From positions 352,001 to 416,000 of the forward strand of contig OZ219787.1 of NCBI GenBank assembly GCA_964291285.2: 64,000 bases of DNA, given 5' to 3'. The stretch's first letter is position 1. Each line of letters starts with the position of its first letter. Shown one piece after another: positions 39,969-63,132 of this stretch. A program made the translations under genes and the position numbers. The DNA is from Alphaproteobacteria bacterium. Its GTDB lineage: Bacteria; Pseudomonadota; Alphaproteobacteria; Bin95. Under the pieces are notes generated by a model. That model had not been told where the DNA came from, did not search any database, and saw only the letters and a list, made by a program, of their open reading frames with translations.

Positions 39969-44436
<4,468 letters not shown>

Positions 44437-45609: not shown

Positions 45610-45817
45610 AAACCAAAAACCGCTTGCAATCCCCGCCGCGCGACACAATCCTCTCCCTCGTCGCTGCCGCCGGGAATCTCATCCTGATTGACGCGCGGCT
45701 CTCATCCAGATTGTCGCGCTATAGCCGTCTCCATCGTGCCGTGGTGGAACCCGGCGGCAGCGCCCCGGCCATGGCCACACCGGCACGTTCGGGCTGTAAT
45801 CGGCAAGCGCACACGCG

Positions 45818-46822
45818 ATGCGCTCAACGATGACAGGAAGGACGGCGCGCCCGGGTGGCGGGACGGGAAAGCGCGGCGGGAGCCGGTCGGGCACGCTCGC
45901 CCTGCCCGCCGACCTCGATCGCTCGCTCCGCCATCTCGACGACACGGACCTCGACCGTCCGGTCGAAGCGGCAACAGTCGAGGCCCGCAGGCGCGGGCGG
46001 CAGGCCGGCAAGACGGCTGGAGGAAGGGTGCACGCCAGGCCCACGCCGGTGACGCAGGGGCAGGAAAAGCCGATCCTTGCCGCCTTCGAGGCCGGCCTCA
46101 GGCCGGCGGCGATCGCGCGGGAGGTAAGGAACTGGTTCGCCCGCCTGCGCGCGGTGCCGGTAGCGGCCGACCGCTCCATGCCGGTGCTGTCCGTCATCAT
46201 GAGGGAGGCGGAAGCCATGGGCCTGCGCCCGGAAGGGTCCAACCCCTGCCGGGGGATCAGGCGCTACCGCCGCAAGGGCCGTGAGCGGTTCCTCCCGGAC
46301 GAGGAAATCCGTCGCCTGTCCGGGAGACTCAAGGCGCATGAGGCCCGCTGGCCGCAGCATGTCGCCGTCATCCGCCTGCTGCTGCTGACCGGATGCCGCA
46401 AGGGCGAGATCCTCACCCTGCAATGGTCCGACTACCGGGAAGGCCGCCTGTTCCTCCGCGATTCCAAGACGGAGCCCCGGACAGTCTGGCTGTCGGAGCC
46501 GGCCCGGACGGTGCTTGATCGTCTCGAGCGGAAGGGGCGGTGGATATTCCCGGCATCAAGGGGCGACCGGCCCCGGAGCGGGTGCTGGCTGTTCCACTTC
46601 TGGCGCAGGGTCCGCGCCGAGGCGGACCTGGAGGACGCCCGCCTTCACGACCTGCGCCATACGCATGCGAGCCTTGCCCTCAGGCAGGGCGAGACGGTGC
46701 TCGCCATCGGCCGGCTGCTGGGCCACCGCAGGCCGGAAACCACGCTGAAATATACCCATGTCGCCGACGCCATGGTGCAGGACGCAGCCGAGACCGTCGG
46801 CGCCGTGCTGGAGGCAGGCTGA
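45818..46822 (+). pseudogene. Tyrosine integrase 1 (left arm), N-terminus replaced by an unrelated gene fragment
   Basis: Matches right-arm integrase 1 only from about 46120; LTGCRKGE, HDLRH, LGH, Y present; KTG changed to KTE. Confidence 0.8.
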
Positions 46823-47966
46823 TGGCGGGCCGGGAACGCATGAAACTCACCGACGCCGCCGTCGCCCGTCTCCGCCCCCGCGGGCGGGAATATACGGTCC
46901 GGGACACGCGCATCGCCGGCCTTGGCGTCCGGGTGCGGCCCACCGGCGGGCGCAGCTGGGTGCTGCTGCTCGACAGCGGCGGGCGCACCAGGCGCGTCTC
47001 GCTCGGCCCGGTCGGCGTGAAGAGCCTGGAGGAGGTTCGCAGGGAACGCCATGCCCGCAAGGCGAACCCCGAGCCCGGCGCAAGGGCCGTGCGCGCGGGG
47101 CCGGTCCCGCTGTTCCGGGATTTCGTCGCGGGCCCGTGGAAGGAGGCGCATTTCGACCGCTGCAAGCCCTCGACGCAGAGGACCGCCCGCTATCAGCTTG
47201 CGGGCCAGCTCCTGCCGGCATTCGGATCGAAGCCGCTGGACCGCATCGGCGAGGCCGCCATCCGGCGCTGGTTCGAGCGATACAGCCGCACCGCGCCGGG
47301 CAACGCCAATCCCTGCCTTGCCCGTCTGCGGCAGATACTCAACTTCGCCCTCGCCTGCGGCCACATCGAGGTCAATCCCGTCGGGCGCATCGCCCCGAAC
47401 CGTCGCACGGCGCTCACGCGGTTCCTGTCCCGGGAGGAACTCGCACGCCTCCATGCCGCCCTGGACGCGCAGACCCGGAAGAGCGCGCGGCAGCAGGCCG
47501 ACATCGTCCGCCTCCTGCTGCTGACGGCTGCCGCAGAAGCGAGATCACGGGCCTCGGCTGGTCGGAAGTCCGCGAGGACGGGTTGGCGCTCACCGATGCC
47601 AAGACGAGGCCGAGGACGGTCCCGCTCGGCAGCCGGGCCCGGGCCATTCTCGACCGGCAGCCGCGCGCGGGCAGCCCGTTCGTGTTTCCCTCGCCGTGCG
47701 ACCCCGCCCGCCCGCGCAGCCCGGACCTGCCGCTCTGGTACCGCGTCAGACGCGAAGCCGGCATCGGGGATGTCCGCCTTCATGATCTCCGGCATACCAT
47801 GGCGAGCCATGCCGTCATGAACGGCGTGCCCGTCCCGGTGGTCTCCCGCCTGCTCGGGCATTCCAATGTGAGGATGACGCTGCGCTATGCCCATCTCGCC
47901 GACCGCGACATCGAAGCCGCCGCGGAACGCGTCGGGCAGGCCATGAGCGCCGTGCTGGAGGCTTGA
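46822..47966 (+). pseudogene. Tyrosine integrase 2 (left arm), frameshifted
   Basis: 1-bp deletion at about 47525 (CTGACGGCTGC versus CTGACCGGCTGC in the right arm) just before the catalytic Arg. Confidence 0.85.
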
Positions 47967-48007
47967 TGCACGACCCGGCCCGATGCTGCCGCTATCGTCG
48001 TGTCCGG

Positions 48008-49258
48008 TCAGAACTGTCGCACGAAGGAGAGTTCGGCGCGGTTGCGGTCGTAGTCGAGGGCCTGGGCGTTGGTATCGCGCTCCTCGCGGATGAGCGAGAG
48101 GCGGGGGCTGAAGCCGAGCACGGTGACGGCGCGGTTGTGCACGGAGAACGAGAGGGTGCGCGTCTCGTCCCGGCGCGGCCTGCGGTCGATGGTGTTGTGG
48201 GCGAAGCCCTGTCCCTGGTATGCGGCGCGCTGCAGGGAGGCGCGCAGGCCAAGGGTGAAGCCGGCCGGCAGCGCGAGCGTCGCGCCGAGGCCGGCCCGGG
48301 GTCCGCGGTTGCGCCAGTGTCCGGCATTGGCGCGGGTCCAGTTGTATCCGGCATGGCCGCCGAGGCGCAGGATCGGCAGGGCGGCCCAGCTTGCGCCGAG
48401 CATCGCATCGCCGACCGGGCCGTCGAGCCAGTTGCAGCCGCGGCAGTTGCGCCGGGTGGCGCTGGCGCGGGCGAACAGGGCGAGGCGAGGCGTCAGGCGG
48501 TGCGCGCCTTCCAGCCGGACGCCGAAGCGGTCGGTCTCGGGCCGCCCGGCGGTCCATTGCCGGTCCACCACCGCCAGCAGGCTCGCCTCCGTGCTTCCGT
48601 CGATCAGCCGGCGCGGGCCGATATGGGCCGAGAGCGAATGGCGGTCGAACGCCCCGCCCTTGTATTCCCGCGCGCTGGCGTCCGCCCCGGCGCGCAGCCG
48701 CAGGGCCGGCGAAAGCGGAACCTGGTATTCGCCGCCGCCCCACAGCGAGACGCCGATGCCCGACTTGCGCGACACGTCGCCGTCGAGGGTGAAGGGCAGG
48801 CGCCCGAACGGCGTGTCGAGGAAGACCGTGCGCTCCCCCGACGCGGCGTTGAGGTTGCTGTCGGGCGCCACCGCCAGGCCGAAATGCGCCTCCCAGCGCC
48901 GCCGCGCGCGCATGATGTCGAGAAAGCGCCGGATGTTGGCGGCCACCGCCGGCGGCGGCGTCCCCGCCAGAACCTGCTCGAAATGCCGCCGCGCCAGGCT
49001 GTCCTCCTCCTTCAGGAAGAAGGCGTGCGCGAGTTCCAGACGCACCCGCACCAGGTCCGGGCGGTCCACCAGGATGGCCCGGAACGCCGCAATCGCCTCG
49101 TCGAGCTTCCCGTCGCGGGCGTCCCGGTCCGCGGCGGCCTGCGCGGCGGCAAGCGCCTCCATGCCCGCCCGGAACCGCTCGCCGGTCGCGTCCTGGCCGT
49201 GGGCCGCGGCGGCGAACAGATACAGCCCGGCCGCAATGACGAGAGCGGGTATGCGCAT
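48008..49258 (-). CDS. Slam-family (DUF560, type XI secretion) outer-membrane translocator
   Basis: Signal peptide, TPR-like RVRLELA...ARRHFEQVL, PDSNLN, barrel ending RNRAELSFVRQF. Confidence 0.85.
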   Translation of the reverse strand: MRIPALVIAAGLYLFAAAAHGQDATGERFRAGMEALAAAQAAADRDARDGKLDEAIAAFRAILVDRPDLVRVRLELAHAFFLKEEDSLARRHFEQVLAGTPPPAVAANIRRFLDIMRARRRWEAHFGLAVAPDSNLNAASGERTVFLDTPFGRLPFTLDGDVSRKSGIGVSLWGGGEYQVPLSPALRLRAGADASAREYKGGAFDRHSLSAHIGPRRLIDGSTEASLLAVVDRQWTAGRPETDRFGVRLEGAHRLTPRLALFARASATRRNCRGCNWLDGPVGDAMLGASWAALPILRLGGHAGYNWTRANAGHWRNRGPRAGLGATLALPAGFTLGLRASLQRAAYQGQGFAHNTIDRRPRRDETRTLSFSVHNRAVTVLGFSPRLSLIREERDTNAQALDYDRNRAELSFVRQF

Positions 49259-49374
49259 GAAAACCCCTGTCCGTGCAAAGGGAACCTCCGGCCGCCCGGA
49301 GGGCGCCGGAGGAAAGAAGGCCCCGGCCGCGCGAAGCGGCCGGGGCCCGGGAACGCGGATGTTCCGGGAGCAGG

Positions 49375-51087
49375 CTACTCCGCCGTCTCCGTCTTCATCC
49401 TCGTTGCGAAGGCGCCGGCAGCGTGCCCGTTCGAGAAGTGGGCGTTGAAGTCGCCGATCACGCCGACCGGACGCTTCGTGTCGCTATCGCCATAGGGCTT
49501 AGCCTGCCACTCGCCGGCCTGAGGCACTTCGCCGCCGACAGAGTCGGAACCCTGGGCAACGCCCCTGCTGCCCGGGCTGCCGACAATCTCGAGGTTGTCA
49601 TTCTTCTTCTCCGTGAGCGTAACGCTCCAGTCCTCGTCGACGGCATTCCCCATGAAGTTGTCGATCTTTCCTCCCAGTGCTGGTGTTCCCGCCGCCCCGA
49701 ACTTGGCGTTGAGCGTCACATCCGCCGTGAACTGTCCCGACTTTAGCCCCGTGACAGTGGGACCGGTGTAGGTCTTCAGCACCGACAGGCCCAGAGCCTT
49801 GCCCTCGTAGGTGGCGGTCTTGGCAAGCCCGGCGGTCTCGCTGACATCCCCGTCAGAGCCGGCGGGGCTGTGGGCGAAGAGAGTGATCCCGGTGGTGCTG
49901 CCGGTCTCATACAGCCCGTACCCGTAGCGGGCATAGACGCCATACGGCGTGTAGTAGGTGTTGCCCGCCTTCATCTGGTAGTAGCGCGTGCTGCCGGCGA
50001 TATTTTCCCCGGCCTTCTGGAAATACAGCGAACCCATCAGATTGCCGCCGTCAACCTTACAGCTGCCCTGGCAATACAACGTCCCCTTGATCCCCTTGTA
50101 ATACTGGTCGGCGAGTATGCCGGTGGCGGGGATTGGAGGAAACGTCGTCAGGGCCGTTCCATCCGAGCCGGTGAGTACGGAAAGGGGCATCCCGGCAAGG
50201 GGCAGGACATCGACATCCATGATGTTGTTGCCGAAGGCCTTCTTGACCAGGTTCCCCGCTCCGGCGATCTGCTCCCAGGTCATGGCGTCTCCCGGGAGTC
50301 CGCGCAGGTCATACTCGACGTAGGCCTTGGAGCGGCCGGTATCGGTGGCGGTGGTGTCGTCCGATGGGTCAGGGGCGACGGGCTCCGTCAGTAGTATCGC
50401 ATCCAGGAGCGGCCTCCGCAGGAGCCGAGTCTCGACCTTGGCATGGCCTTCGTTGCCGCCATCTCCTCCATAGGGCTGCAGCATGTAGAGAACCCGCCGC
50501 GCGTTGTTGCCGCTCATGGCGGCACTAGCGGGGGTTTCGCCGGCGAGGCCCTTGATCTTCGCCTCGGTATCGACCTTCGCGGCATAGCCGTTGACCGTTG
50601 TCTGGTACCCCTCGATGAGCTTGATCTGCGCTTCCACGTCCTTGATCCGCTGACCGACCACCTCCTTCTGCGACGCGAGGCCGGGCGTGCCGGCCGGCAC
50701 GGCGTTCAGGTCCGTCTGCGCCTTCCTGGCCGCCGTCAGCGCCGCCTTGGCGTCCGCCAGCGCCTTGTCGGCCGCCGCCTTCGCGGCCATCACGGCCGCG
50801 GCGTTGGTCCGGACCACCGAGCTTTCGCCTCCGGTGGTGTAGATGTCATATGCGTTCGCCAACTTGGCCGCGTCAAGCTGCATCTTGGCCGTTTTCACGG
50901 CATCCTCCGCCGCCTTCTTGGCCGCCGTGGCGGCGGCGACGTAAGACTGCGCCTTTTCGACCGGCGTCATCTCCATTTGCTGGTCGCCCATCACAGCCGG
51001 CTTTTTGGACCCGCCGCCTCCGCAGGCTGCGAGCGCCAGGCCCGCAGCGGCCATCGCCGCCAGAGCCACATGTTTCATGGTTCTCAT
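49375..51087 (-). CDS. Surface lipoprotein, variant L (Ala-rich stalk plus TbpB-like C-terminal barrel)
   Basis: Lipobox LAAC+GGGGS; TATYEGKALG, FTADVTLNAKFG, GDFNAHFSNGHAAGAF; 570 aa. Confidence 0.85.
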   Translation of the reverse strand: MRTMKHVALAAMAAAGLALAACGGGGSKKPAVMGDQQMEMTPVEKAQSYVAAATAAKKAAEDAVKTAKMQLDAAKLANAYDIYTTGGESSVVRTNAAAVMAAKAAADKALADAKAALTAARKAQTDLNAVPAGTPGLASQKEVVGQRIKDVEAQIKLIEGYQTTVNGYAAKVDTEAKIKGLAGETPASAAMSGNNARRVLYMLQPYGGDGGNEGHAKVETRLLRRPLLDAILLTEPVAPDPSDDTTATDTGRSKAYVEYDLRGLPGDAMTWEQIAGAGNLVKKAFGNNIMDVDVLPLAGMPLSVLTGSDGTALTTFPPIPATGILADQYYKGIKGTLYCQGSCKVDGGNLMGSLYFQKAGENIAGSTRYYQMKAGNTYYTPYGVYARYGYGLYETGSTTGITLFAHSPAGSDGDVSETAGLAKTATYEGKALGLSVLKTYTGPTVTGLKSGQFTADVTLNAKFGAAGTPALGGKIDNFMGNAVDEDWSVTLTEKKNDNLEIVGSPGSRGVAQGSDSVGGEVPQAGEWQAKPYGDSDTKRPVGVIGDFNAHFSNGHAAGAFATRMKTETAE

Positions 51088-51169
51088 CGAACCCTTCTCC
51101 TTTTTTCTTTCAAGCCCGGACAGACCGGGCAAACCGTTTGAACCGTTCCTTCGTCGCGCGAACCGCAGG

Positions 51170-52354
51170 TCAGAAGCTCAGCGTGATGCCGGTCACGAAA
51201 CCGGCGCCCTCGACATTGCTGCCGGCGGCATTGCTGCCGGTGCTGGGCGCAGGCTTGCCTCTTTCCGCCGACGGCACGCCGAAATCGTGCTTGCCGGGCA
51301 TCGTGCCACGGTCCCTCTCGGCCATGAACAGCGAGCTTCTCCAGGCAATGCCCGGCGCCAGCATGTAGCTCGCCGAAAACAGGCCGCCCGACTGCTCCGT
51401 GCCGTCGTCGGCCTCGGTCATCGTGCCGCTCAGGCTCACCGCCAGCGCGCCTTCCGAATACATCACACCGGCGGCCACGACCTCGACATCATCCGAGGAG
51501 TCCGTCTTCATCCCGTCGTCCGCCGTGGCATAGGCGACATCGAAGCTGAACGCCCCCATGCCCACCCGCAGGCCGGCATTCGTGAAGGTGTAGTCGTCGT
51601 CGTCCATCTGGCTCTTCTGGTAGTGGCCCGCAGAGAACGCCAGGTTCATGTTGCCGAAATCGCCCTTGTAGTTGCCGGCGACCGACCAGGCGTCCATGTC
51701 GTTGTTCTTCACATTGCCGCCACGGCCTTCCTGCCCGGTGTTCGGGATGTAGCTCACGGCCATCTGCGCGCCGTTCACCCGCGGCGTGAAGTAGCTCACC
51801 AGGTTCTTGTCGCCGAGGCCGTGGCCCGCGGTCCCCAGGCCGGAGGGCCCGCACTCGTTGATGCCGTTGATCCATCTGCCCATGTCGCCGCAGACCATGC
51901 CGAAACCGGCATCCCGCACGCCCATGTGGGTGAGAACCACCGCGCTGTCCTCGGCTCCCAGCGTGATCTGACCGAACTCGCCGCCAACCGTCACCTGCGA
52001 CTCGTCGATCATCGAACCCGACTGACTGTTGCCCTCGAGCTCCACCTTCACCGAGAAGGTCATGCCGTTGTCGGCGTCCAGCTTGCCCTTGAAGAAGATC
52101 TCGCTGTCCGACTGCTGGGCAACGCCGCCCTCTTTCATCGCGTCCGCCTCGTCGTCCACATCGACCATCCCGAACCACTGCTGCATGTAGCCGCCGACGC
52201 CCACGCTCAGCATCTCCGCCGCAGACGCGGGACCCGCCGCAAGCGCAAGACCCGAGGCCGCAAGAAGAACCTTGCCCGTGAAACCCCGCGCACGGCATCC
52301 GCCATGCAGCCTGCCGTCCCCCGGCCATGCCGGGCCATGTCTTGTTGTCGTCAT
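51170..52354 (-). CDS. Gram-negative porin (alphaproteobacterial type)
   Basis: Signal peptide, DSEIFFKG...DNGMTF...ELEG, IDES, GEFGQITLG, SYFTPR, C-terminal Phe. Confidence 0.88.
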   Translation of the reverse strand: MTTTRHGPAWPGDGRLHGGCRARGFTGKVLLAASGLALAAGPASAAEMLSVGVGGYMQQWFGMVDVDDEADAMKEGGVAQQSDSEIFFKGKLDADNGMTFSVKVELEGNSQSGSMIDESQVTVGGEFGQITLGAEDSAVVLTHMGVRDAGFGMVCGDMGRWINGINECGPSGLGTAGHGLGDKNLVSYFTPRVNGAQMAVSYIPNTGQEGRGGNVKNNDMDAWSVAGNYKGDFGNMNLAFSAGHYQKSQMDDDDYTFTNAGLRVGMGAFSFDVAYATADDGMKTDSSDDVEVVAAGVMYSEGALAVSLSGTMTEADDGTEQSGGLFSASYMLAPGIAWRSSLFMAERDRGTMPGKHDFGVPSAERGKPAPSTGSNAAGSNVEGAGFVTGITLSF

Positions 52355-52705
52355 CGTCTCGTCTCCTTCAGGTGAAAGCCCGTCCGCAGCGCCCGTCGAC
52401 CGCCGCACGCCGGAGAAGGCGCACGACGGGGCGGCAGGTCACCGGGGATGGGAGGTGAAGCCGCGGCCCCGGAAAGGCCGCGGCAGAAAGCGTGCCGGGG
52501 AAAGCCGGGCCGCCCGCAAGGCGGTCATGCCGCAAGCGCGGCGGGACCGCTCCCGCGCGCTGCCCGGCAACGTATCCATCTGCACGCGCCCGGCGCTCCT
52601 CCGCAGAGGACGCACAGGCGGGAAAGACAACAATCAGGCGGGAGCCGCTCTCCCGAAAGCGAACCGGCTGACCGGCGCCAGAAGACGGCATATGAAAGAC
52701 ATGAA

Positions 52706-52831
52706 GAGGCGCGAGGCGCGAGGCGCGAGGCGCGAGGCGCGAGGCGCGAGGCGCGAGGCGCGAGGCGCGAGGCGCGAGGCGCGAGGCGCGAGGCGCGAGG
52801 CGCGAGGCGCGAGGCGCGAGGCGCGAGGCGC
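52706..52831. repeat. Heptanucleotide tandem repeat (GAGGCGC)18
   Basis: 126 bp of perfect units upstream of the left porin. Confidence 0.95.
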
Positions 52832-52832
52832 C

Positions 52833-52864
52833 ATTCTACTCCGTGATAAAGCCTCGGAAGTCAA
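52833..52864 (-). promoter_or_regulatory. Candidate promoter TTGACT-N20-TAGAAT (left arm)
   Basis: Both hexamers match the right-arm copy while the spacer differs; abuts the repeat tract. Confidence 0.45.
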
Positions 52865-53438
52865 CCCGAATACACCCGCCGCTGAGATGGCGCGGAACCT
52901 CTAACCCGGCCGACGACACCGCACAAGCTCCCGGACCAACCCCCACGCCGATTTTACCGACCTGTTGCATCCATGCCACAGTCAGCCGCCGACGGGGCCC
53001 CGCAAACCGGGCCCGCGGCACCCATCGACGACCGGCAGGAGCGGCTTTCTCCACCGGCGTGCAATGGAACGCAATGGAGCGTCCGCTGCCGCGTCTTCCC
53101 CACTCCAGGCCCGCCGCCGCCAGCGGCGCATCGACAAATGCGCGCCCATTTCCCGCCGGCGGCGCCATCACCGCGCGCTGGCGCCGCCCTTCTTCTCCGC
53201 CGCTCATGGACGCCGGACGCCCCAAACGTCCATTGCCGGGCGGGTCGGCCACCCCGTATCATGAAAACAGGCGCCGGCCGCGCGGGCGGGACTTCGGGCT
53301 TTTACGGGGTTGCCTACCGGTCACGGTCCGCAAGACGGGCACCGCAGATGGCGAGTATCGGACGCCTCGGGAGCAGTGCTTTGGCGGGGCGGGGTTTTTG
53401 TGCGCCCGATCCCCAACCATTTTCACGGCAAACGACGG

Positions 53439-53570
53439 TCACATTCCGCGAATGGGATAATTGGCATCCTGCAGAGCGTGGCGGATCGCGGTGAGTCTGT
53501 GCCCTTGGGCGATCCACGACAACAATCGTAGCGCCTTCACCAGGTTGTTCTTGCCCGAAGCATTGGCGTC
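53439..53570 (-). pseudogene. AAA ATPase N-terminal fragment
   Basis: DANASGKNNLVKALRLL, a degenerate Walker A. Confidence 0.4.
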
Positions 53571-53571
53571 C

Positions 53572-53925
53572 GCAAGCATGGTGAGCGGCGCGAGCGGCGG
53601 GGAGGGATGCGCGGACATGGAGCGTTTCGGTCGGGCGAAGGAAGGGTTTCTGCGCCGTTTCATGGAGTTGAAGCACGGCATCCCGAGCCACGATGCGTTT
53701 TCGGACCTGTTCAACGCCCTCGATCCCGACAGCCTGCAGAAAGTGCTGCTGCGGCTTCTGGAGGACTGGGCGGCGGTTCTGGACGGCGATGTGATCGCGA
53801 TTGACGGCAAGTCGCTGCGGCGTTCCTTCGCCGATGCCGCGGCGCGCTCGCCGGTGCATCTGGTGCAGGCCTTCGCCGCCGGGACCCGCCTGATGCTCGG
53901 CCAGGTGAAGGTCGATGACAAGTCC
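53572..53925 (+). pseudogene. ISAs1-family transposase fragment
   Basis: GIPSHDAF, IAIDGKSLRRS, HLVQAF, LGQVKVDDKS. Confidence 0.85.
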
Positions 53926-54405
53926 CCCTGATCGGCCCTGATCGGCGAGCTGCGGCAGGGGTGGCATGTTGTCCGATGCGTTTCCTACAATGATTTGAGC
54001 GTCCTGGTGGGCGTATTTTGGTTTTCACCGAGCGGGTGAAGGAATGGTGAGGGGTTATCGCTCTGCGGTCAGGGTTACAGTCGAGCGAGGCGGGGCGGCC
54101 TCGACGGCGCGTGGCGGTGTGGTTCTGGTGTTCGAGTTGCTGGCGACGAGGCGGGTTCTTGCGGGTCTTCCGCGTCTGTCCGGGAGTCCGTCACAGGGCT
54201 GGAGCGACGGCCAGATGATCCTTGCGGTTCCGGTTCTGAACATGGCGGGGCTTGACCGTGTGTCGGACATTGAGGTTCTGGAGGCGGACCGGGGGCTTTG
54301 CGCTCTGGTGCGCCGGTTCGAGCCGAAGCTGTTCGGGGTCTCTCGCGGTTCTCTTGCGCGTCGGTTCCGGGGCGGTCGCGAGCGTTGCTTTCCGTCGGCG
54401 CGCTC
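53926..54405 (+). pseudogene. IS1380-like element left end with N-terminal transposase fragment (from 54044)
   Basis: Begins CCCTGATCGG; TARGG...GWSDGQMI...AGLDRVSDIEVLEAD...FPSA; cut at the right-arm boundary. Confidence 0.55.
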
Positions 54406-54740
54406 GAGAAGAAGGGCGGCGCCAGCGCGCGGTGATGGCGCCGCCGGCGGGAAATGGGCGCGCATTTGTCGATGCGCCGCTGGCGGCGGCGGGCCTGGAG
54501 TGGGGAAGACGCGGCAGCGGACGCTCCATTGCGTTCCATTGCACGCCGGTGGAGAAAGCCGCTCCTGCCGGTCGTCGATGGGTGCCGCGGGCCCGGTTTG
54601 CGGGGGCCCGTCGGCGGCTGACTGTGGCACGGCTGCAACAGGTCGGTAAAATCGGCGTTCGGGTTGGTCCGGGAGGTTGTGCGGTGTCGTGCGGCCGGGT
54701 TAGAGGTTCCGGGCCATCTCAGCGGCGGGTGTATCCGGAC

Positions 54741-54772
54741 TTGACTTCAGCGGCTCGAACACGGTGTAGAAT
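54741..54772 (+). promoter_or_regulatory. Candidate promoter TTGACT-N20-TAGAAT (right arm)
   Basis: Immediately precedes the heptamer tract; hexamers shared with the left arm. Confidence 0.45.
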
Positions 54773-54926
54773 ACGCCTCGCGCCTCGCGCCTCGCGCCTC
54801 GCGCCTCGCGCCTCGCGCCTCGCGCCTCGCGCCTCGCGCCTCGCGCCTCGCGCCTCGCGCCTCGCGCCTCGCGCCTCGCGCCTCGCGCCTCGCGCCTCGC
54901 GCCTCGCGCCTCGCGCCTCGCGCCTC
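54773..54926. repeat. Heptanucleotide tandem repeat (GCGCCTC)21 plus one imperfect unit
   Basis: 147 perfect bp at 54780-54926 preceded by ACGCCTC. Confidence 0.95.
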
Positions 54927-55277
54927 TTCATGTCTTTCATTTGCCGTCTTCTGGCGCCGGTCTGCCGGTTCGCCATCGGGAGAGCGGCTCCCGCCTGATT
55001 GTTGTCTTTCCCGCCTGTGCGTCCTCTGCGGAGGAGCGCCGGGCGCGTGCAGATGGACAGGTTGCCGGGCAGCGCGCGGGAGCGCGCCCGCCGCGCTTGC
55101 GGCATGACCGCCTTGCGGGCGGCCCGGCTTTCCCCGTCACGCTTTCTGCCGCGGCCTTTCCGGGGCCGCGGCTTCACCTCCCGTCCCCGGTGACCTGCCG
55201 CCCCGTCGTGCGCCTTCTCCGGCGTGCGGCGGTCGACGGGCGCTGCGGACGGGCTTTCACCTGAAGGAGACGAGACG

Positions 55278-56462
55278 ATGACGACAACAAGACATGGCCC
55301 GGCATGGCCGGGGGACGGCAGGCAGCATGGCGGATGCCGTGCGCGGAGCTTCACGGGCAAGGTTCTTCTTGCGGCCTCGGGTCTTGCGCTTGCGGCGGGT
55401 CCTGCGTCTGCGGCGGAGATGCTGAGCGTGGGCGTCGGCGGCTACATGCAGCAGTGGTTCGGGATGGTCGATGTGGACGACGAGGCGGACGCGATGAAAG
55501 AGGGCGGCGTTGCCCAGCAGTCGGACAGCGAGATCTTCTTCAAGGGCAAGCTGGACGCCGACAACGGCATGACCTTCTCGATGAAGGTGGAGCTCGAGGG
55601 CAACAGTCAGTCGGGTTCGATGATCGACGAGTCGCAGGTGACGGTTGGCGGCGAGTTCGGTCAGATCACGCTGGGAGCCGAGGACAGCGCGGTGGTTCTC
55701 ACCCACATGGGCGTGCGGGATGCCGGTTTCGGCATGCTCTGCGGCGACATGGGCAGATGGATCAACGGCATCAACGAGTGCGGGCCCTCCGGCCTGGGGA
55801 CCGCGGGCCACGGCCTCGGCGACAAGAACCTGGTGAGCTACTTCACGCCGCGGGTGAACGGCGCGCAGATGGCCGTGAGCTACATCCCGAACACCGGGCA
55901 GGAAGGCCGTGGCGGCAATGTGAAGAACAACGACATGGACGCCTGGTCGGTCGCCGGCAACTACAAGGGCGATTTCGGCAACATGAACCTGGCGTTCTCT
56001 GCGGGCCACTACCAGAAGAGCCAGATGGACGACGACGACTACACCTTCTCGAATGCCGGCCTGCGGGTGGGCATGGGGGCGTTCAGCTTCGATGTCGCCT
56101 ATGCCACGGCGGACGACGGGATGAAGACGGACTCCTCGGATGATGTCGAGGTCGTGGCCGCCGGGGTGATGTATTCGGAGGGCGCGCTGGCGGTGAGCCT
56201 GAGCGGCACGATGACCGAGGCCGACGACGGCACGGAGCAGTCGGGCGGCCTGTTTTCGGCGAGCTACATGCTGGCGCCGGGCATTGCCTGGAGAAGCTCG
56301 CTGTTCATGGCCGAGAGGGACCGCGGCACGATGCCCGGCAAGCACGATTTCGGCGTGCCGGCGGCGGAAAGAGGCAAGCCTGCGCCCAGCACCGGCAAAA
56401 ATGCCGCCGGCAGCAACGTCGAGGGCGCCGGGTTCGTGACCGGCATCACGCTGAGCTTCTGA
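55278..56462 (+). CDS. Gram-negative porin (second copy)
   Basis: 394 aa; 7 substitutions versus the left copy by manual comparison; AAGGAG RBS. Confidence 0.88.
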   Translation: MTTTRHGPAWPGDGRQHGGCRARSFTGKVLLAASGLALAAGPASAAEMLSVGVGGYMQQWFGMVDVDDEADAMKEGGVAQQSDSEIFFKGKLDADNGMTFSMKVELEGNSQSGSMIDESQVTVGGEFGQITLGAEDSAVVLTHMGVRDAGFGMLCGDMGRWINGINECGPSGLGTAGHGLGDKNLVSYFTPRVNGAQMAVSYIPNTGQEGRGGNVKNNDMDAWSVAGNYKGDFGNMNLAFSAGHYQKSQMDDDDYTFSNAGLRVGMGAFSFDVAYATADDGMKTDSSDDVEVVAAGVMYSEGALAVSLSGTMTEADDGTEQSGGLFSASYMLAPGIAWRSSLFMAERDRGTMPGKHDFGVPAAERGKPAPSTGKNAAGSNVEGAGFVTGITLSF

Positions 56463-56544
56463 CCTGCGTTTCGCGCGGCGAAGGAACGGTTCAAACGGTT
56501 TGCCCGGTTTGTCCGGGCTTGAGAGAAGGAAGGAGAAGGGTTCG

Positions 56545-58290
56545 ATGGGAACCATGAGACATGTGGCTCTGGCGGCGATGGCCGCTGCGGGCCTGGCGCT
56601 CGCGGGCTGCGGAGGCGGTGGCGGGAAGAAGGCGGCCGCGCCGATGGACGGCGACCAGCAGATGGAGATGACGGACGTCCAGAAGGCGCAGGCGGCCTAC
56701 GACGCCGCCGCGGCAGCCGAGACGGCGGCGATGGCGGCCAGGAAGGAAGCGGAAGCTCAGCTGGCCGCGGTCAAGAAGGCGGTCGAGCCGCCCCAATTCT
56801 CTCGGCAAATGTACATCACCGGAGGCGACAGTTCGGTGGTCCGGACCAACGCCGCGCTCGTGAAAGACGCGAAGGCGGCGGCCGACAAGGCGCTGGCGGA
56901 CGCCAAGGCGGCGCTGAAGGCGGCCGAGAAGGCGCAGACGGACCTGAACGCCCTGTCGGCCGGCACGACCGGCCTTGCGGCGCAGAAGAAGGTGGTCACG
57001 GGTCAGATCGAAACAGTGAAAGCGGAGATCAAGGCCATCGAGAAGACCCTGACCGGGGCCGGCACGATCGGAGACTATTTCTCGAGGGTCGATACCGAGG
57101 CGGAAATCAAGGACCGCGCCGGCGAAACCCTCGCTACAGCTGGCTTCGACAACCTTAATTCGTCAAGGCCCGCGAGGCGGATGCTTGCTGTCTTGTCGCC
57201 TGCGGAAACAGCTCGTACCGGCACCCGCGCCGGCGGTTACGATGGCGTATCCACGAGTATGTGGCTTCACAGGCCGTCAAATCTCTACAAAGACGGTGGG
57301 AACAGTACTCCGCCGACGAAGGTCATCGCCACCGGGACTAACGCCGATCGGAGATCCCTGTTCTATCACAAGTATGACGACGGCGAACTTCCGGCCGGCG
57401 TCATGACCTGGGAGCAGATTGCCGCCAAGGATGGGATGCTCGTGAAGAAGGCTTTCGGCACCGACAACATGGATGTCGATGTCCTGCCCCTTGCCGGGAT
57501 GCCCCTGTCCTCACTCACCGGCTCGGATGGAACGGTCCTGACGGCGTATCCCTCCGACATCTCCGGGGACCAGTATTACAAGGGGGTCAAGGGGACGCTG
57601 TATTGCCAGGGCACCTGCTCTGCCCCTGGCGGCAAGCTGACCGGCAACCTGTTCTTCAAGGCGGCCGACGAATTCGACGATAACTACGCGGGCCACTATC
57701 GCTACTACTGGATAACGCCGAGGAACTCCCACTACACGCAGTGGAATGAATATGCCCGCTACGGGTACTGGCTGTCTGGAGATGGCGATGAAAGGAGCAA
57801 GGTCCATGCCATCGCAGACAGCCCTGCCCCCGAGCGCGGGGAGTTAGGCGTGAACTCCGATCTGCCCGCCACCGCCACCTACAAGGGCGAAGCCTTTGGC
57901 CTGTCGGCGCTGAAGCTCTACACCGCCGGCGAGCACACGGGGCAGAAGTCCGCACGGTTCACGGCGGATGTGACGCTCAACGCCAAGTTCGGGAAGGAAG
58001 GCGCCCGTAAAATGGGAGGCAAGATCGACAACTTCAAGGGGAATGCCGTCAACGAGAACTGGAGCGTCAAGCTCGCGGAGGGCGCGAACAACAACTTCGA
58101 TGTCGAAGGTCTGGCCACGGGTTCCAGCGGCGGCACCGCCTTCGACAAGCCCGGCAGTTGGCAGGCTGGAGCCTTCCACCAGGGCGGCCCGGGGCGCCCG
58201 GCCGGCATGATAGGCACCTTCATCACCCACTTCGTGGACGGGAGCGCCACCGGCGGATTCTCGACGAGGATACAAGCGCCGGCAGAGTAG
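56545..58290 (+). CDS. Surface lipoprotein, variant R
   Basis: Lipobox LAGC+GGGGG; same architecture as variant L but heavily diverged; 581 aa. Confidence 0.85.
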   Translation: MGTMRHVALAAMAAAGLALAGCGGGGGKKAAAPMDGDQQMEMTDVQKAQAAYDAAAAAETAAMAARKEAEAQLAAVKKAVEPPQFSRQMYITGGDSSVVRTNAALVKDAKAAADKALADAKAALKAAEKAQTDLNALSAGTTGLAAQKKVVTGQIETVKAEIKAIEKTLTGAGTIGDYFSRVDTEAEIKDRAGETLATAGFDNLNSSRPARRMLAVLSPAETARTGTRAGGYDGVSTSMWLHRPSNLYKDGGNSTPPTKVIATGTNADRRSLFYHKYDDGELPAGVMTWEQIAAKDGMLVKKAFGTDNMDVDVLPLAGMPLSSLTGSDGTVLTAYPSDISGDQYYKGVKGTLYCQGTCSAPGGKLTGNLFFKAADEFDDNYAGHYRYYWITPRNSHYTQWNEYARYGYWLSGDGDERSKVHAIADSPAPERGELGVNSDLPATATYKGEAFGLSALKLYTAGEHTGQKSARFTADVTLNAKFGKEGARKMGGKIDNFKGNAVNENWSVKLAEGANNNFDVEGLATGSSGGTAFDKPGSWQAGAFHQGGPGRPAGMIGTFITHFVDGSATGGFSTRIQAPAE

Positions 58291-58316
58291 CCGGCTCCCG
58301 GAGCATCACCTTTTCG

Positions 58317-58351
58317 GGCCCCGGCTGCTTCAGGCGGCCGGGGCCTTCTTT
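58317..58351 (+). terminator. Hairpin between lipoprotein and Slam genes (possible terminator or attenuator)
   Basis: GGCCCCGGCTGC-loop-GCGGCCGGGGCC followed by TTCTTT; equivalent hairpin at about 49319-49347. Confidence 0.5.
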
Positions 58352-58405
58352 CCTCCGGCGCCCTCCGGGTTGCCGGAGGTTCCCCTTGCACGGACAATGG
58401 TTTTC

Positions 58406-59656
58406 ATGCGCATACCCGCTCTCGTCATTGCCGCCGGGCTGTGCCTGTTCGCCGCCGCCGCCCACGGCCAGGACGCGACCGGCGAGCGGTTCCGGGCGGG
58501 CATGGAGGCGCTTGCCGCCGCGCAGGCCGCTCCGGACCGGGACGCCCGCGACGGGAAGCTCGACGAGGCGATTGCGGCGTTCCGGGCCATCCTGGTGGAC
58601 CGCCCGGACCTGGTGCGGGTGCGCCTCGAACTCGCGCACGCCTTCTTCCTGAAGGAGGAGGACAGCCTGGCGCGGCGGCATTTCGAACAGGTGCTGGCGG
58701 GGACGCCGCCGCCGGCGGTGGCCGCCAACATCTGGCGCTTCCTCGACATCATGCGCGCGCGGCGGCGCTGGGAGGCGCATTTCGGCCTGGCGGTGGCGCC
58801 CGACAGCAACCTCAACGCCGCGTCGGGGGAGCGCACGGTCTTTCTCGACACGCCGTTCGGGCGCCTGCCCTTCACCCTCGACGGCGACGTGTCGCGCAAG
58901 TCGGGCATCGGCGTCTCGCTGTGGGGCGGCGGCGAATACCAGGTTCCGTTGTCGTCGGCCCTGCGGCTGCGCGCCGGGGCGGACGCCAGCGCGCGGGAAT
59001 ACAAGGGCGGGGCGTTCGACCGCCATTCGCTCTCGGCCCATATCGGCCCGCGCCGGCTGATCGACGGGAGCACGGAGGCGAGCCTGCTGGCGGTGGTGGA
59101 CCGGCAATGGACCGCCGGGCGGCCCGAGACCGACCGCTTCGGCGTCCGGCTGGAAGGCGCGCACCGCCTGACGCCGCGCCTCGCCCTGTTCGCCCACGCC
59201 AGCGCCACCCGGCGCAACTGCCGCGGCTGCAACTGGCTCGACGGCCCGGCGGGCGATGCGATGCTCGGCGCAAGCTGGGCCGCCCTGCCGATCCTGCGCC
59301 TCGGCGGCCATGCCGGATACAACTGGACCCGCGCCAATGCCGGACACTGGCGCAACCGCGGACCCCGGGCCGGCCTCGGCGCGACGCTCGCGCTGCCGGC
59401 CGGCTTCACCCTCGGCCTGCGCGCCTCCCTGCAGCGCGCCGCATACCAGGGACAGGGCTTCGCCCACAATACCATCGACCGCAGGCCGCGCCGGGACGAG
59501 ACGCGCAGCCTCTCGCTCTCCGTGCACAACCGCGCCGTCACCGTGCTCGGCTTCAGCCCCCGCCTCTCGCTCATCCGCGAGGAGCGCGATACCAACGCCC
59601 AGACCCTCGACTACAAACGAAACCGCGCCGAACTCTCCTTCGTGCGACAGTTCTGA
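58406..59656 (+). CDS. Slam-family outer-membrane translocator (second copy)
   Basis: 416 aa; about 10 substitutions versus the left copy by manual comparison. Confidence 0.85.
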   Translation: MRIPALVIAAGLCLFAAAAHGQDATGERFRAGMEALAAAQAAPDRDARDGKLDEAIAAFRAILVDRPDLVRVRLELAHAFFLKEEDSLARRHFEQVLAGTPPPAVAANIWRFLDIMRARRRWEAHFGLAVAPDSNLNAASGERTVFLDTPFGRLPFTLDGDVSRKSGIGVSLWGGGEYQVPLSSALRLRAGADASAREYKGGAFDRHSLSAHIGPRRLIDGSTEASLLAVVDRQWTAGRPETDRFGVRLEGAHRLTPRLALFAHASATRRNCRGCNWLDGPAGDAMLGASWAALPILRLGGHAGYNWTRANAGHWRNRGPRAGLGATLALPAGFTLGLRASLQRAAYQGQGFAHNTIDRRPRRDETRSLSLSVHNRAVTVLGFSPRLSLIREERDTNAQTLDYKRNRAELSFVRQF

Positions 59657-59756
59657 CCGGACACGCCGATAGCGGCAGCATCGGGCCGGGTGCGGCGCAG
59701 GCAGAAGACCGGCGCCATTCGCTCATGAAGGAGCGGGTCTGCCGCGGCCGCCCCGG

Positions 59757-60902
59757 TCATGTCTCCAGCACGGCGCTCATGGCCTGCCCGACGCGTTCCG
59801 CGGCGGCCTCGATGTCGCGGTCGGCGAGATGGGCGTAGCGCAGCGTCATGCGCACACTGGAATGCCCGAGCAGGCGGGAGACCACCGGGACCGGCACGCC
59901 GTTCATCACCGCATGGCTGGCCATGGTATGGCGCAGGTCATGAAGGCGGACATCCCCGATGCCGGCTTCGCGTCTGACGCGGTACCAGAGCGGCAGGTCG
60001 GGGCTGCGCGGGCGGGCGGGGTCGCACGGCGAAGGAAACACGAACGGGCTGCCCGTGCGCGGCTGCCGGTCGAGAATGGCCCGGGCCCCGCTGCCGAGCG
60101 GGACCGTCCTCGGTCCGGTCTTGGCATCGGTGAGCGCCAGCCCGTCCTCGCGGACTTCGGACCAGCGCAGGCCCGTGATCTCGCTTCTGCGGCAGCCGGT
60201 CAGCAGCAGGAGGCGGACGATGTCGGCCTGCTGCCGCGCGCTCTTCCGGGTCTGCGCGTCCAAGGCGGCATGGAGGCGTGCGAGTTCCTCCCGGGACAGG
60301 AACCGCGTGAGCGCCGTGCGGCGGTTCGGGGCGATGCGCCCGACGGGATTGACCTCGATGTGGCCGCAGGCGAGGGCGAAGTTGAGTATCTGCCGCAGAC
60401 GGGCAAGGCAGGGATTGGCGTTGCCCGGCGCGGTGCGGCTGTATCGCTCGAACCAGCGCCGGATGGCGGCCTCGCCGATGCGGTCCAGCGGCTTCGATCC
60501 GAATGCCGGCAGGAGCTGGCCCGCAAGCTGATAGCGGGCGGTCCTCTGCGTCGAGGGCTTGTAGCCGTCGAAATGCGCCTCCTTCCATGGACCGGCGACG
60601 AAATCCCGGAACAGCGGGACCGGCTGCGCCGGCCGGGCCTCTTTTTCCGGCTCGGGGTTCGCCTTGCGGGCATGGCATTCCCTGCGAACCTCCTCCAGGC
60701 TCTTCACGCCGACCGGGCCGAGCGAGACGCGCCTGGTGCGCCCGCCCCTGTCGAGCAGCAGCACCCAGCTGCGCCCGCCGGTGGGCCGCACCCGGACGCC
60801 GAGACCGGCGATGCGCGTGTCCCAGACCGTATATTCCCGCTCGCGGGGGCGGAGACGGGCGACGGCGGCGTCGGTGAGTTTCATCCGTTCCCGGCCCGCC
60901 AT
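59757..60902 (-). CDS. Tyrosine integrase 2 (intact)
   Basis: Arm-binding-type N-terminus (WDTRIAGLGVRV), LTGCRRSE, KTG, HDLRH, LGH, RY. Confidence 0.9.
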   Translation of the reverse strand: MAGRERMKLTDAAVARLRPREREYTVWDTRIAGLGVRVRPTGGRSWVLLLDRGGRTRRVSLGPVGVKSLEEVRRECHARKANPEPEKEARPAQPVPLFRDFVAGPWKEAHFDGYKPSTQRTARYQLAGQLLPAFGSKPLDRIGEAAIRRWFERYSRTAPGNANPCLARLRQILNFALACGHIEVNPVGRIAPNRRTALTRFLSREELARLHAALDAQTRKSARQQADIVRLLLLTGCRRSEITGLRWSEVREDGLALTDAKTGPRTVPLGSGARAILDRQPRTGSPFVFPSPCDPARPRSPDLPLWYRVRREAGIGDVRLHDLRHTMASHAVMNGVPVPVVSRLLGHSSVRMTLRYAHLADRDIEAAAERVGQAMSAVLET

Positions 60903-62026
60903 CAGCCTGCCTCCAGCGCCGCGCCGACCGTCTCGGCTGCGTCCTGCACCATGGCGTCGGCGACATGGGTATATTTCAGCGTGGTTTCCGGCCTGCGGTG
61001 GCCCAGCAGCCGGCCGATGGCGAGCACCGTCTCGCCCTGCCGGAGGGCAAGGCTCGCATGCGTATGGCGCAGGTCGTGAAGGCGGGCGTCCTCCAGGTCC
61101 GCCTCGGCGCGGACCCGGTTCCAGAAGTGGAACAGCCAGCTTCCGCTCCGGGGCCGGTCGCCCCTCGATGCCGGGAATATCCACCGCCCCTTCCGCTCGA
61201 GACGATCAAGCACCGCCCGGGCCGGCTCCGACAGCCAGACTGTCCGGGGCCCCGTCTTGGAATCGCGCAGGAACAGGCGGCCTTCGCGGTAGTCGGACCA
61301 TTGCAGGGTGAGGATCTCGCCCTTGCGGCATCCCGTGAGCAGCAGCAGGCGGATGACGGCGACATACTGCGGCCAGCGGGCCTCATGCGCCTTGAGCCTC
61401 CCGGACAGGCGGCGGATTTCCTCGTCCGGGAGGAACCGCTCGCGGCCCTTGCGGCGGTAGCGCCTGATCCCCCGGCAGGGATTGGAGCCCTCCGGGCGCA
61501 GGCCCATGGCCTCCGCCTCCCTCATGATGACGGACAGCACCGGCATCGACCGGTCCGCCGCCGCCGGCACCGCGCGCAGGCGGGCGAACCAGTGCCGCAC
61601 CTCCTGCCGGTCGATCTCCGCAATCGGCCTTCCGGCGAAATGCGGCAGAAGCCGGTTGCGCAGATAGCTTCGGTTCACGATCATCGTTCCGGGCTTCCAG
61701 ACGCCCTCGTGACGGCGGAACGCGATCCCGGCGACGGCTTCGAAGAGCGTCTCGTCCGGCGTGAGCGGCGCCTCCCCGCCGCGCCTGATGGTGGCGAGCA
61801 TCTCCGCAGCCGCGGCCCGCGCTTCGCCGATGCTCATGCTGTCGGCGTCGCCGACAATCTTCCAGATACGCGCGCCGCGATGCTGGCAGTGGATGAAGAA
61901 CTGCTTGCGGCCCGAGGGCGACACACGGACGCCGAACCCCCTGAGCCTGCCGTCGCGGACCTCGCGGACGGACCTGCGGGGCTTGAGCGCCTTCACGCGC
62001 GCCTCGGTGAGGGTAGTCTTCGCCAT
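60902..62026 (-). CDS. Tyrosine integrase 1 (intact)
   Basis: RDGRLRGFGVRV N-terminus, LTGCRKGE, KTG, HDLRH, LGH, KY; TGATG coupling to integrase 2. Confidence 0.9.
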   Translation of the reverse strand: MAKTTLTEARVKALKPRRSVREVRDGRLRGFGVRVSPSGRKQFFIHCQHRGARIWKIVGDADSMSIGEARAAAAEMLATIRRGGEAPLTPDETLFEAVAGIAFRRHEGVWKPGTMIVNRSYLRNRLLPHFAGRPIAEIDRQEVRHWFARLRAVPAAADRSMPVLSVIMREAEAMGLRPEGSNPCRGIRRYRRKGRERFLPDEEIRRLSGRLKAHEARWPQYVAVIRLLLLTGCRKGEILTLQWSDYREGRLFLRDSKTGPRTVWLSEPARAVLDRLERKGRWIFPASRGDRPRSGSWLFHFWNRVRAEADLEDARLHDLRHTHASLALRQGETVLAIGRLLGHRRPETTLKYTHVADAMVQDAAETVGAALEAG

Positions 62027-62145
62027 TGCGTTTCTCCCGGCTCCGGTTGCAGCCGGGGAACGGGCCCTTGCGACCCGCTTCCCCGACCGCTGCATTTCGG
62101 GAGAAAAAACAACGCTATGTCAGATAGTTAGCACCCACAGGTGCG

Positions 62146-63132
62146 CTCACCGGTGTGGAAACATATGAGTATTCGCTGAGCGCCGGGCGCGAGGGCGGCA
62201 TAACGGATATCGACTATCTGAAGCGGGTGGACGCGTTCGTCGAATGGTACCGGGCGCAACCGGAAACCGCGCATGTCTTCGCCATCACCGACATCATGAA
62301 GCGGCTCAACAGGAACCTGCATGGCGACGACCCGGCGTTCAACATTCTTCCCGACGACTCCGATCTCGCCGCGCAATATCTGCTGCTCTACGAATTTTCG
62401 CTGCCCGTCGGCCGCGACCTCAACAATCTCATCGATGTCGGGCGGTCGTCCACGCGCATGACGGTCGTGCTGCGCAGCCTTTCCAGCGACGAGAAGGTCG
62501 CGCTCGACGAACGCGCGCAGGCATGGCTCGGGCAGAACGCTCCCGGCATGGAAACCGGCGCCACCGGAGTTGCGGTCGTCGGCGCCCGGTCGATCCAGAG
62601 AAACATAGAGGGCATGCTGCTCGGCACCTTCATCGCCATGGCCATCGTCTCCGTGCTGCTGCTGCTCGTCTTCAGGAGCGTGCGGCTCGGCGTCATCAGC
62701 CTGATTCCCAATTTCGTCCCGGCCGCCATGGCGATGGGCCTCTGGGGTTATCTGGTGGGCGAGGTCGGCATCGCGGCCTCGGTGGTCACCGCGATCGCGT
62801 TCGGCATCATCGTGGACGACACGATCCATTTCATGACCAAATATGCGGCCGCCCGGAAGAACGGGCTGCTGCCGTCGGAATCCGTGCAGTCCGCCTTCCG
62901 CTCCGTGGGCAAGGCGCTGCTGGCGACGACGGTCGTGTTCGGCCTCGGCTTCATGGTGTTCGGCGCATCGGGCATGGTGACCAACCAGGCGCTCGGCCTG
63001 CTGGCGGGCATGACGGTCATCATCGCCCTCCTGGCGGACTTCCTGTTCCTCCCGCCCCTGCTGATGGTGCTCGACGGGACGAAGGAAACGAGCGAACAGA
63101 TCAGGGAACGGCTGCGGCGGGAGGCCGGATAG
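62146..63132 (+). pseudogene. MMPL/RND-family transporter, C-terminal part only
   Basis: SLIPNFVP, FGIIVDDTIHF, DFLFLPPL; only one TM repeat, 5' part absent next to the integrases. Confidence 0.8.

Follow-up and report, generated by a model that had tools for sequence, protein, structure and literature searches.

Is a mirror-image pair of surface-protein gene cassettes, each bordered by integrase genes, a working genetic device, or is it a remnant of something that moves? This question is raised by a 64,000-nt stretch of DNA from an alphaproteobacterium (Alphaproteobacteria bacterium, lineage Bin95; GenBank assembly GCA_964291285.2, contig OZ219787.1), hereafter the window, which is C3:352001-416000 of a genome of 6.13 Mb in five contigs (G000; 68% GC content, completeness 100%, contamination 4.77%). 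Two inverted arms in the window (46117-53197 and 54406-61607) each hold genes for a porin, a surface lipoprotein, a Slam translocator and tyrosine integrases. The arms are two truncated copies of a discrete integrative element of about 8.2 kb, and the region very probably consists of two decayed copies of this one mobile element that were put head to head by rearrangement driven by insertion sequences (IS); that rearrangement most likely produced the mirror layout as a side effect.

The element was defined from copies elsewhere in the same genome, with an intact copy, D (C3:1616808-1625016), as reference. The DNA upstream of the first integrase gene (int1) was aligned in 17 copies, and homology starts at one sharp point, CGCACCTGTGGGTGCTAACTATCTGAC..., in 16 of them, the DNA outside being unrelated. 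On the opposite side, in the group that carries Slam, homology reaches about 1 kb past the promoter and stops sharply at ...GAGATTTACACC in all seven right ends aligned; the right end of copy I is ACACG. Genome-wide, 15 ends of the int1-side type (attL) and 11 of the far type (attR) were located, and the attL-type ends lead into about 11 different flanks with only ACACC in common. Copy D is flanked by ACACCAGCGAG and ACACCAGAGAG. Of 16 further genomes of the genus, 11 have these flanks contiguous, with an overlap of 9-11 nt (empty sites); the empty-site sequence was readable in four of five sites fetched, as ACACCAGCGAG twice and AGACCAGCGAG twice. From the empty sites and the 11-bp duplication it follows that the integrase pair and the porin-lipoprotein-Slam operon are one precise insertion of 8.19 kb. 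Such a precise insertion, with direct repeats and an empty site in relatives, was found for copy D and not for the window copies. The integrase regions of copies B (the right arm of the window), D and E are 99-100% identical and lie at three different sites with three different duplications, a pattern that points to recent movement inside this genome. No tRNA gene was found in the window, and the insertions do not share a single conserved integration site.

The complete element comprises a terminal site, int1 and a second integrase gene (int2), the porin-lipoprotein-Slam operon on the opposite strand behind a structured leader of about 350 nt that begins with a heptamer repeat, about 1 kb of non-coding DNA, and a second terminal site. 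Its integrases would insert it at loose ACACC-N6 sites and leave a duplication of 10-11 bp; the insertion is observed, and from it we infer catalysis by the integrases. The preliminary description of the window had proposed a self-contained module mobilised by integrases; integrases and operon are indeed one mobile unit, as copy D and the empty sites attest, and the palindrome itself is made of truncated remnants without attR. At the right end of copy D (L031 8700-9016), the last 300 nt or so are AT-richer than the rest of the element, an 8-bp perfect inverted repeat (AAATCTCA/TGAGATTT) lies beside the end, and ACTATCTGAC stands in a subterminal position, in the orientation opposite to the int1-side end; these sequences may be binding sites for the integrases.

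In the window, the two inverted arms of about 7 kb around a 1.2-kb spacer of IS debris, as first described, were recovered as five collinear inverted-repeat blocks (94-98% identity) around a centre of 1208 nt with a transposase fragment; the repetition between the arms far exceeds chance. The blocks are:

46117-47525 and 60199-61607: inverted repeat block, 1409 nt, 96%
47525-47966 and 59757-60198: inverted repeat block, 442 nt, 94%
47973-49349 and 58315-59691: inverted repeat block, 1377 nt, 97%
50996-52831 and 54801-56636: inverted repeat block, 1836 nt, 98%
52913-53197 and 54406-54690: inverted repeat block, 285 nt, 98%

Collinearity is broken solely over the lipoprotein gene, where only patches of 81-88% align. 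Read from the centre outward, each arm has a promoter-like TTGACT-N20-TAGAAT, a perfect tract of GAGGCGC heptamers, the leader of about 350 nt, the porin, lipoprotein and Slam genes, and two integrase genes convergent on Slam, as follows:

46117..46822, plus strand: left-arm int1, 3' fragment, residues 164-397 only (tblastn; Pfam Phage_integrase), the 5' part replaced by another repeated element
46825..47966, plus strand: left-arm int2, frameshifted, residues 1-229 and 235-380 in separate frames, domains split over two open reading frames (ORFs)
48008..49267, minus strand: left-arm Slam, DUF560/SlipAM barrel and candidate TPR region (Pfam SlipAM E 2.9e-19), 97% identical to the right copy
49375..51087, minus strand: left-arm surface lipoprotein, allele L, 570 amino acids, lipobox LAAC, about 52-54% identical to allele R
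51170..52354, minus strand: left-arm porin, 394 amino acids (Pfam Porin_4 E 2.7e-35), with a signature of GC content at third codon positions as in real genes
52706..52831, minus strand: left-arm heptamer tract, (GAGGCGC) x18.0, 100% matches, within non-coding leader DNA, some 350 nt ahead of the porin ATG
52833..52864, minus strand: left-arm promoter-like TTGACT-N20-TAGAAT, spacer allele P2, hexamers kept across two spacer alleles, putative
53198..54405, no strand: centre, IS debris, 1208 nt, fragments of three multi-copy repeats
53220-53432: in the centre, multi-copy unit of 213 nt
53594-53931: in the centre, IS fragment with a DDE_Tnp_1_assoc transposase fragment
53936-54405: in the centre, IS fragment
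54741..54772, plus strand: right-arm promoter-like TTGACT-N20-TAGAAT, spacer allele P1, putative
54774..54926, plus strand: right-arm heptamer tract x21.9
54927..55277, plus strand: right-arm leader, 351 nt, GC-rich, non-coding, predicted to be strongly structured
55278..56462, plus strand: right-arm porin (Pfam Porin_4 E 9.3e-35)
56545..58290, plus strand: right-arm surface lipoprotein, allele R, 581 amino acids, lipobox LAGC, predicted helical bundle (40-212) and TbpB-like handle with 8-strand barrel (216-581)
58316..58346, plus strand: terminator-like hairpin between lipoprotein and Slam genes, 14 pairs, putative
58397..59656, plus strand: right-arm Slam (Pfam SlipAM E 2.9e-20)
59757..60884, minus strand: right-arm int2, intact, R, HxxR, H and Y present, 100% identical to int2 of copies D and E
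60902..62095, minus strand: right-arm int1, intact (Pfam, tblastn, catalytic residues)
62131..62156, minus strand: right-arm int1-side element end CGCACCTGTGGGTGC..., then the 11-bp site copy ACACCGGTGAG
62155..63132, plus strand: 3' half of an MMPL-family gene split by the element (Pfam MMPL), flank outside the element

The gene identities first assigned to each arm were upheld by Pfam, the lipobox and the predicted fold, the lipoproteins being without a Pfam family. Of the tandem integrases assigned to each arm, both are whole in the right arm; in the left arm int1 is truncated and int2 frameshifted. The promoter-like motif assigned to each arm is present as TTGACT/TAGAAT, with the hexamers 20 nt apart. 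The left flank of the region is a pile of IS (44601-45542, 41579-43907) that includes a DDE_Tnp_1 transposase, a fragment of IS21 IstB and an IS1595-type transposase gene of which the genome has at least 15 near-identical copies. The 213-nt unit of the centre has about 40 genome copies at 94-98%, often as head-to-tail pairs (e.g. C1:515236-515447 and 515446-515654), and may be a miniature inverted-repeat transposable element or an IS end.

Both window arms end, at 53197 and 54406, about 900 nt short of the far (attR) end, and the IS fragments begin there. The fate of the missing part of the right arm can be followed through the MMPL-family gene: its 3' half (residues 497-786 of a paralogue) adjoins the outer end of the right arm, its 5' half (residues 95-500) runs up to C1:567792, where it adjoins an attR-type end, and the halves join in frame across ACACCGGTGA. 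Since the halves lie on separate contigs, the inserting element was torn apart, and its cargo half was joined via IS debris to another truncated copy. In the left arm, the repeat boundary at 46117 cuts into int1, which has therefore lost residues 1-163; this truncated junction is common to three other loci (C2:771050, C5:327073 and C2:227091), and the truncated version has therefore spread by segmental duplication and not by its own integrases. The inverted layout is without demonstrated function and, on sequence grounds, neither window copy is able to move as a unit; both operons with their promoters look intact, and both may still be expressed.

A search of the genome by BLAST with 45001-63000, followed by tblastn with five proteins, gave 11 close cassette copies on contigs C1, C2, C3 and C5, plus four or five more distant Slam loci. 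Units of int1, int2, Slam, lipoprotein and porin genes occur elsewhere in the genome, and those of the window are not unique. Both ends are kept in three copies (C, D and E), copy B has attL only and copy J attR only, copy I has a variant attR end that was missed by the motif search, and copies A (the left arm of the window), F, G, H and K have neither end. A second head-to-head pair, again of an R-type and an L-type arm and with a larger centre, lies on C5; its R-type arm is 99.69% identical over 5441 nt, and its L-type arm 99.09% over 4622 nt, to the window arms. The L-type arm plus flank is found again on C2.

The independent assembly of the same R-type/L-type pair on C5 bears on the possibility that assembly created the palindrome, or one of its joins, through a mis-join among near-identical copies. 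The arms also differ by 2-6% and carry different lipoprotein alleles, which does not fit a fold-back; because the arms differ and the pair was assembled twice, a mis-join is unlikely. Public sequences from three runs of the organism, available as short contigs, were compared with the part between the heptamer tracts: contigs from other isolates agree perfectly with segments of the centre (e.g. 53403-53601 and 54262-54407), but among the contig pieces listed none spans this part or the join at 54405/54406, and those reaching 54407 continue into the intact IS. The left join (53197/53198 to 53614) is common to C2 and C5; on the other side, each arm has a twin of 99.1-99.7% elsewhere and contig ends fall in repeats. 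Taken together, we consider an artefact quite improbable.

The palindrome had also been read, in the preliminary description, as a programmed switch in which recombination between the arms flips the centre and swaps promoter and repeat alleles between two lipoprotein operons. The arms do share 1836 nt at 98% over leader and porin, enough for RecA-driven inversion; a crossover between them is physically possible and would be ordinary homologous recombination. No recombinase sites were seen at the centre borders (53197/54406), the centre is IS debris that is unlike between the two palindromes (1.2 kb here; on C5 the porin starts are about 6.7 kb apart), and the layout arose by truncation, the attR of the right arm being on another contig. 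Promoter-lipoprotein linkage is not constant, for allele L stands behind P2 and 18 heptamers in copy A but behind a P1 variant and about two heptamers in G, its 99.1% sister, so an exchange upstream of the operon happened at some time; single copies elsewhere, however, show the same mosaicism without a palindrome. No sign of a flip was found, and the C5 palindrome, with the same promoter variant in both arms, is uninformative on this point. A programmed flip is thus very improbable, and we retain the reading of two decayed copies put head to head.

The wider genome and genus place the cassette among many relatives. The genome contains 15 near-full-length Slam matches, and each of 16 genomes of the genus has Slam homologues, often a large number of them; the arrangement porin-lipoprotein-Slam is seen again in at least G016, G010 and G008. 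In G016 and G010 (L019-L024), two different porin-lipoprotein-Slam cassettes stand tail to tail with convergent Slam genes; inverted cassette pairs thus recur in the genus in an orientation other than that of the window pair. In G007 (L012-L016), a lipoprotein-Slam unit is repeated at 99.6-99.99% beside integrase pairs of another subfamily, in a nested, inverted repeat structure. A further repeat of the window genome, a 4,049-bp element with about 20 copies at 99.7-100% on four contigs (e.g. C1:130901-134949), is evidently active or very recent. A pattern search of a contig collection was uninformative, its patterns matching the signal peptide and its sole locus being a metagenome-assembled genome with lipoprotein and Slam fragment. 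Three metagenome runs, two of them labelled sponge, share few sequence words with the region, and one gave four short pieces, too few for an inference of habitat.

The integrase genes carry Arm-DNA-bind_3, Phage_int_M and Phage_integrase domains (Pfam), and both right-arm integrases have the catalytic R, HxxR, H and Y. Int1 and int2 are adjacent paralogues, P4-like tyrosine integrases that are 40% identical to each other, and no ORF with a family match was found between or beside the two genes beyond the pair. Matches to int1 number 50 in the genome; of 16 genomes of the genus, 15 have element integrases, and none of 20 genomes of two sister genera does (E <= 1e-60). The window genome has more than 40 tandem integrase pairs; they belong to four subfamilies, whose identities to int1 are about 90%, 58%, 43% and 37%. 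In the close int1 family the cargo behind int2 varies and the copies fall into cargo groups; elements of this family measure 36.3 kb (C1:412421-448760, repeat ACACCCCTGAA) and 38.7 kb (C1:1132378-1171128), and a further two-integrase element was mapped at C3:123445-145047 (repeat ACACCACGGCC).

Among the cargo, the Slam genes match the barrel domain SlipAM/DUF560 (PF04575) at 70-73 bits (cut-off 22) over profile positions 1-288 of 288; their N-terminal region matches TPR_Slam at 29-30 bits, below the cut-off of 35.2, and TPR_19 weakly. The lipoprotein has a conserved signal peptide and a lipobox (LALAGC or LALAAC) followed by a glycine run, C22 being invariant in 36 of 36 sequences. An AlphaFold model based on a 36-sequence alignment (predicted local distance difference test, pLDDT, 82.5; predicted template-modelling score 0.77), which replaced a model from seven sequences (pLDDT 50.5), predicts a helical bundle for residues 40-212 and a TbpB-like handle plus 8-strand barrel for residues 216-581. 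Residues 216-581 of the model match fHbp (Z 12.2, root-mean-square deviation 3.2, 160 aligned), NHBA (Z 11.6), hemophilin (Z 11.0), the TbpB C-lobe (Z 10.8, 186 aligned) and HpuA (Z 10.2), with Z scores from VIA, and in a Foldseek search with the model all 38 rows among the matches listed are Slam-type lipoproteins.

Sequence profiles alone place the lipoprotein family nowhere. Pfam gave no relevant family in any of 36 members, the NCBIfam profile slam_lipo matched only one distant paralogue (E 2.4e-4, 21 bits against a cut-off of 80), and a profile search of the PDB with the lipoprotein returned coiled-coil noise only; the family has 35 members in a collection of 5.8 billion proteins, none of them named. 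From the gene families and the fold, which are observed, we infer export: the Slam protein would carry the lipid-anchored, TbpB-like lipoprotein to the cell surface. A predicted complex of porin (47-394) and lipoprotein (216-581) scored 0.00, which is evidence neither way. The hairpin that separates the lipoprotein gene from Slam (58316-58346) may reduce the amount of Slam made.

Comparison of the two arms shows strong divergence in the lipoprotein gene alone, with a synonymous divergence (dS) of 0.39 and a nonsynonymous divergence (dN) of 0.355, as against a dS of 0.026 for the porin and 0.052 for Slam; in several 60-codon windows of the lipoprotein gene dN exceeds dS. The paralogues are mosaic: copy H starts R-type and its remainder is L-type, and copy B matches D at 100% over the integrases but at only 71-81% over parts of its lipoprotein and porin genes. 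This pattern fits old lipoprotein alleles kept within flanks homogenised by recombination. Recombination among the dozen copies keeps porin and Slam alike, and the old lipoprotein alleles persist as mosaics.

The operons differ further in the heptamer tract between promoter and leader. Eight GAGGCGC tracts of at least three units are present in the genome (7, 9, 13, 16, 17, 18, 21 and 25 units), and three further copies (F, G and H) have about two units. Copies D and E share 99.83% identity across 7242 nt yet have 13 and 25 units, and B (x21), J (x17) and F (about two) are 99.7% identical; tract length thus differs between near-identical copies, as in a contingency locus. Slippage changes it quickly, as these same copies show. 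Tract length probably tunes the expression of each copy, on the model of the 7-bp repeats in Haemophilus hmw promoters; in the hmwA promoters, more 7-bp repeats are reported to have generally gone with less transcript (PMC2424069).

That the tract is instead a neutral slippery sequence, carried by the element without effect on expression, is a rather unlikely alternative. The tract follows the conserved promoter-like hexamers directly in every copy, beginning 1-2 nt after TAGAAT, and in another species a two-lobed lipoprotein gene that neighbours a porin-Slam pair is preceded, at a distance of about 250 nt, by a different tract, (GAGCGCC)x19; the reported relation of repeat number to hmwA transcript level (PMC2424069) also argues against neutrality. 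Consistent with it are the intact operons of copies F, G and H, which keep only about two units, and the absence of covariation for a specific RNA pairing. The pairing considered was of the leader start with the ribosome-binding site of the porin gene (anti-Shine-Dalgarno), and it was rejected, the 5' leader having two alleles (in six and five of 11 copies) and the 3' partner being invariant in 11 of 11. A location of the tract inside a small ORF was ruled out as well, there being no codon periodicity. The right-arm leader has a minimum free energy of -202.5 kcal/mol (z -5.7 against shuffled controls), no Rfam family matched within 52300-55350, and a terminator-like hairpin (54977-54993) lies about 50 nt into that leader.

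Beyond the window, these observations suggest, as a tentative reading that we hold to be possible and short of probable, a transposable surface-variation system of the genus, in which low-specificity dual-integrase elements would spread the operon, heptamers would set its output, and gene conversion would reshuffle the lipoprotein alleles. Several points weigh against our interpretation of the locus and its element. Read-level signs of excision, circles, within-population variation of repeat length or expression are absent, the public runs of the organism consisting of short contigs only. The genome is very repetitive, with many duplications of 5-35 kb between contigs, and some joins, including 54405/54406, could be assembly errors. 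Contiguous integrase-Slam DNA of this exact form was absent from the 16 other species examined, in which the linkage of integrase pair and Slam cassette takes other layouts. No excisionase gene was found in the element, and the 20-nt distance between the promoter hexamers lies outside the usual spacing, so that a scan for spacings of 16-18 nt skips them.

If true, the surface-variation system would let one cell line show many surface combinations, and the cassette would be the first known instance of Slam cargo on a mobile element of its own, and its lipoprotein the first of this type to have a porin as partner in place of a TonB receptor. What is known of Slam-exported lipoproteins comes mainly from a few animal pathogens, where their genes are fixed in the chromosome and work with TonB receptors. 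Here, in an uncharacterised alphaproteobacterial genus, about a dozen Slam cassettes in one genome are paired with porins, ride on a small inserting element and stand behind a fast-changing repeat; should the repeat control expression, transposition would here have spread contingency loci, in a compact natural example. The element also offers a simple two-integrase system with an 11-bp target. It is the mobile, repeat-bearing, multi-copy Slam cassette that is of interest, and the mirror layout adds little.

With the Slam, or type XI secretion (T11SS), systems of Neisseria (TbpB, LbpB, fHbp, HpuA), the cassette shares a DUF560/SlipAM protein beside a lipoprotein with lipobox and TbpB-like barrel. 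It differs in its partner, a Porin_4 porin where the known systems typically have a TonB-dependent receptor (TonB receptors are given for 120 of 185 clusters in a Slam cluster survey; PMC5449769), in a lipoprotein with an N-terminal helical bundle and no Pfam family, and in riding on a mobile element; the words 'integrase' and 'mobile' are absent from the main texts of two Slam surveys (PMC5449769; bioRxiv 10.1101/2020.01.20.912956). The 15 near-full-length Slam matches of this genome compare with 'up to 6' Slam paralogues given for Neisseria (bioRxiv 10.1101/2020.01.20.912956).

The heptamer tract resembles the 7-bp repeats in the hmw1A and hmw2A promoters of H. influenzae as described in PMC2424069, in that heptamers of variable number separate promoter-like hexamers from the coding part of a surface-protein operon; here the unit is GC-rich, reaches 25 units, and occurs at about 11 loci on mobile elements. 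Islands and integrative mobilisable elements with P4-like (Arm-DNA-bind_3) integrases are similar in having the integrase at one end, the cargo behind it, short direct repeats and precise insertion. The present element, in contrast, has two adjacent paralogous integrases, no tRNA target and no excisionase seen, uses a loose target of ACACC plus six variable bases inside genes, and is present in dozens of copies per genome.

The multi-recombinase transposons likewise combine cargo with several tyrosine recombinase genes at one end; their gene sets are given as IntA-Tfp-IntB-Srap for SEs, GinA-D for GInts, RitA-C for RITs and TnpA-C for Tn554 (PMC10214605). None of these core sets is present here: there are just two adjacent P4-like genes, with no Tfp, Srap, GinC/D or third recombinase, and the host belongs to an alphaproteobacterial genus, whereas SEs are recorded in the same source from Gammaproteobacteria only. 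A search of one literature library returned no described dual- or tandem-integrase element of this form and no integrase-borne Slam cassette. We read the element as a dual-integrase island carrying a contingency-type Slam cassette, of which the parts are of known kinds and the combination is new.

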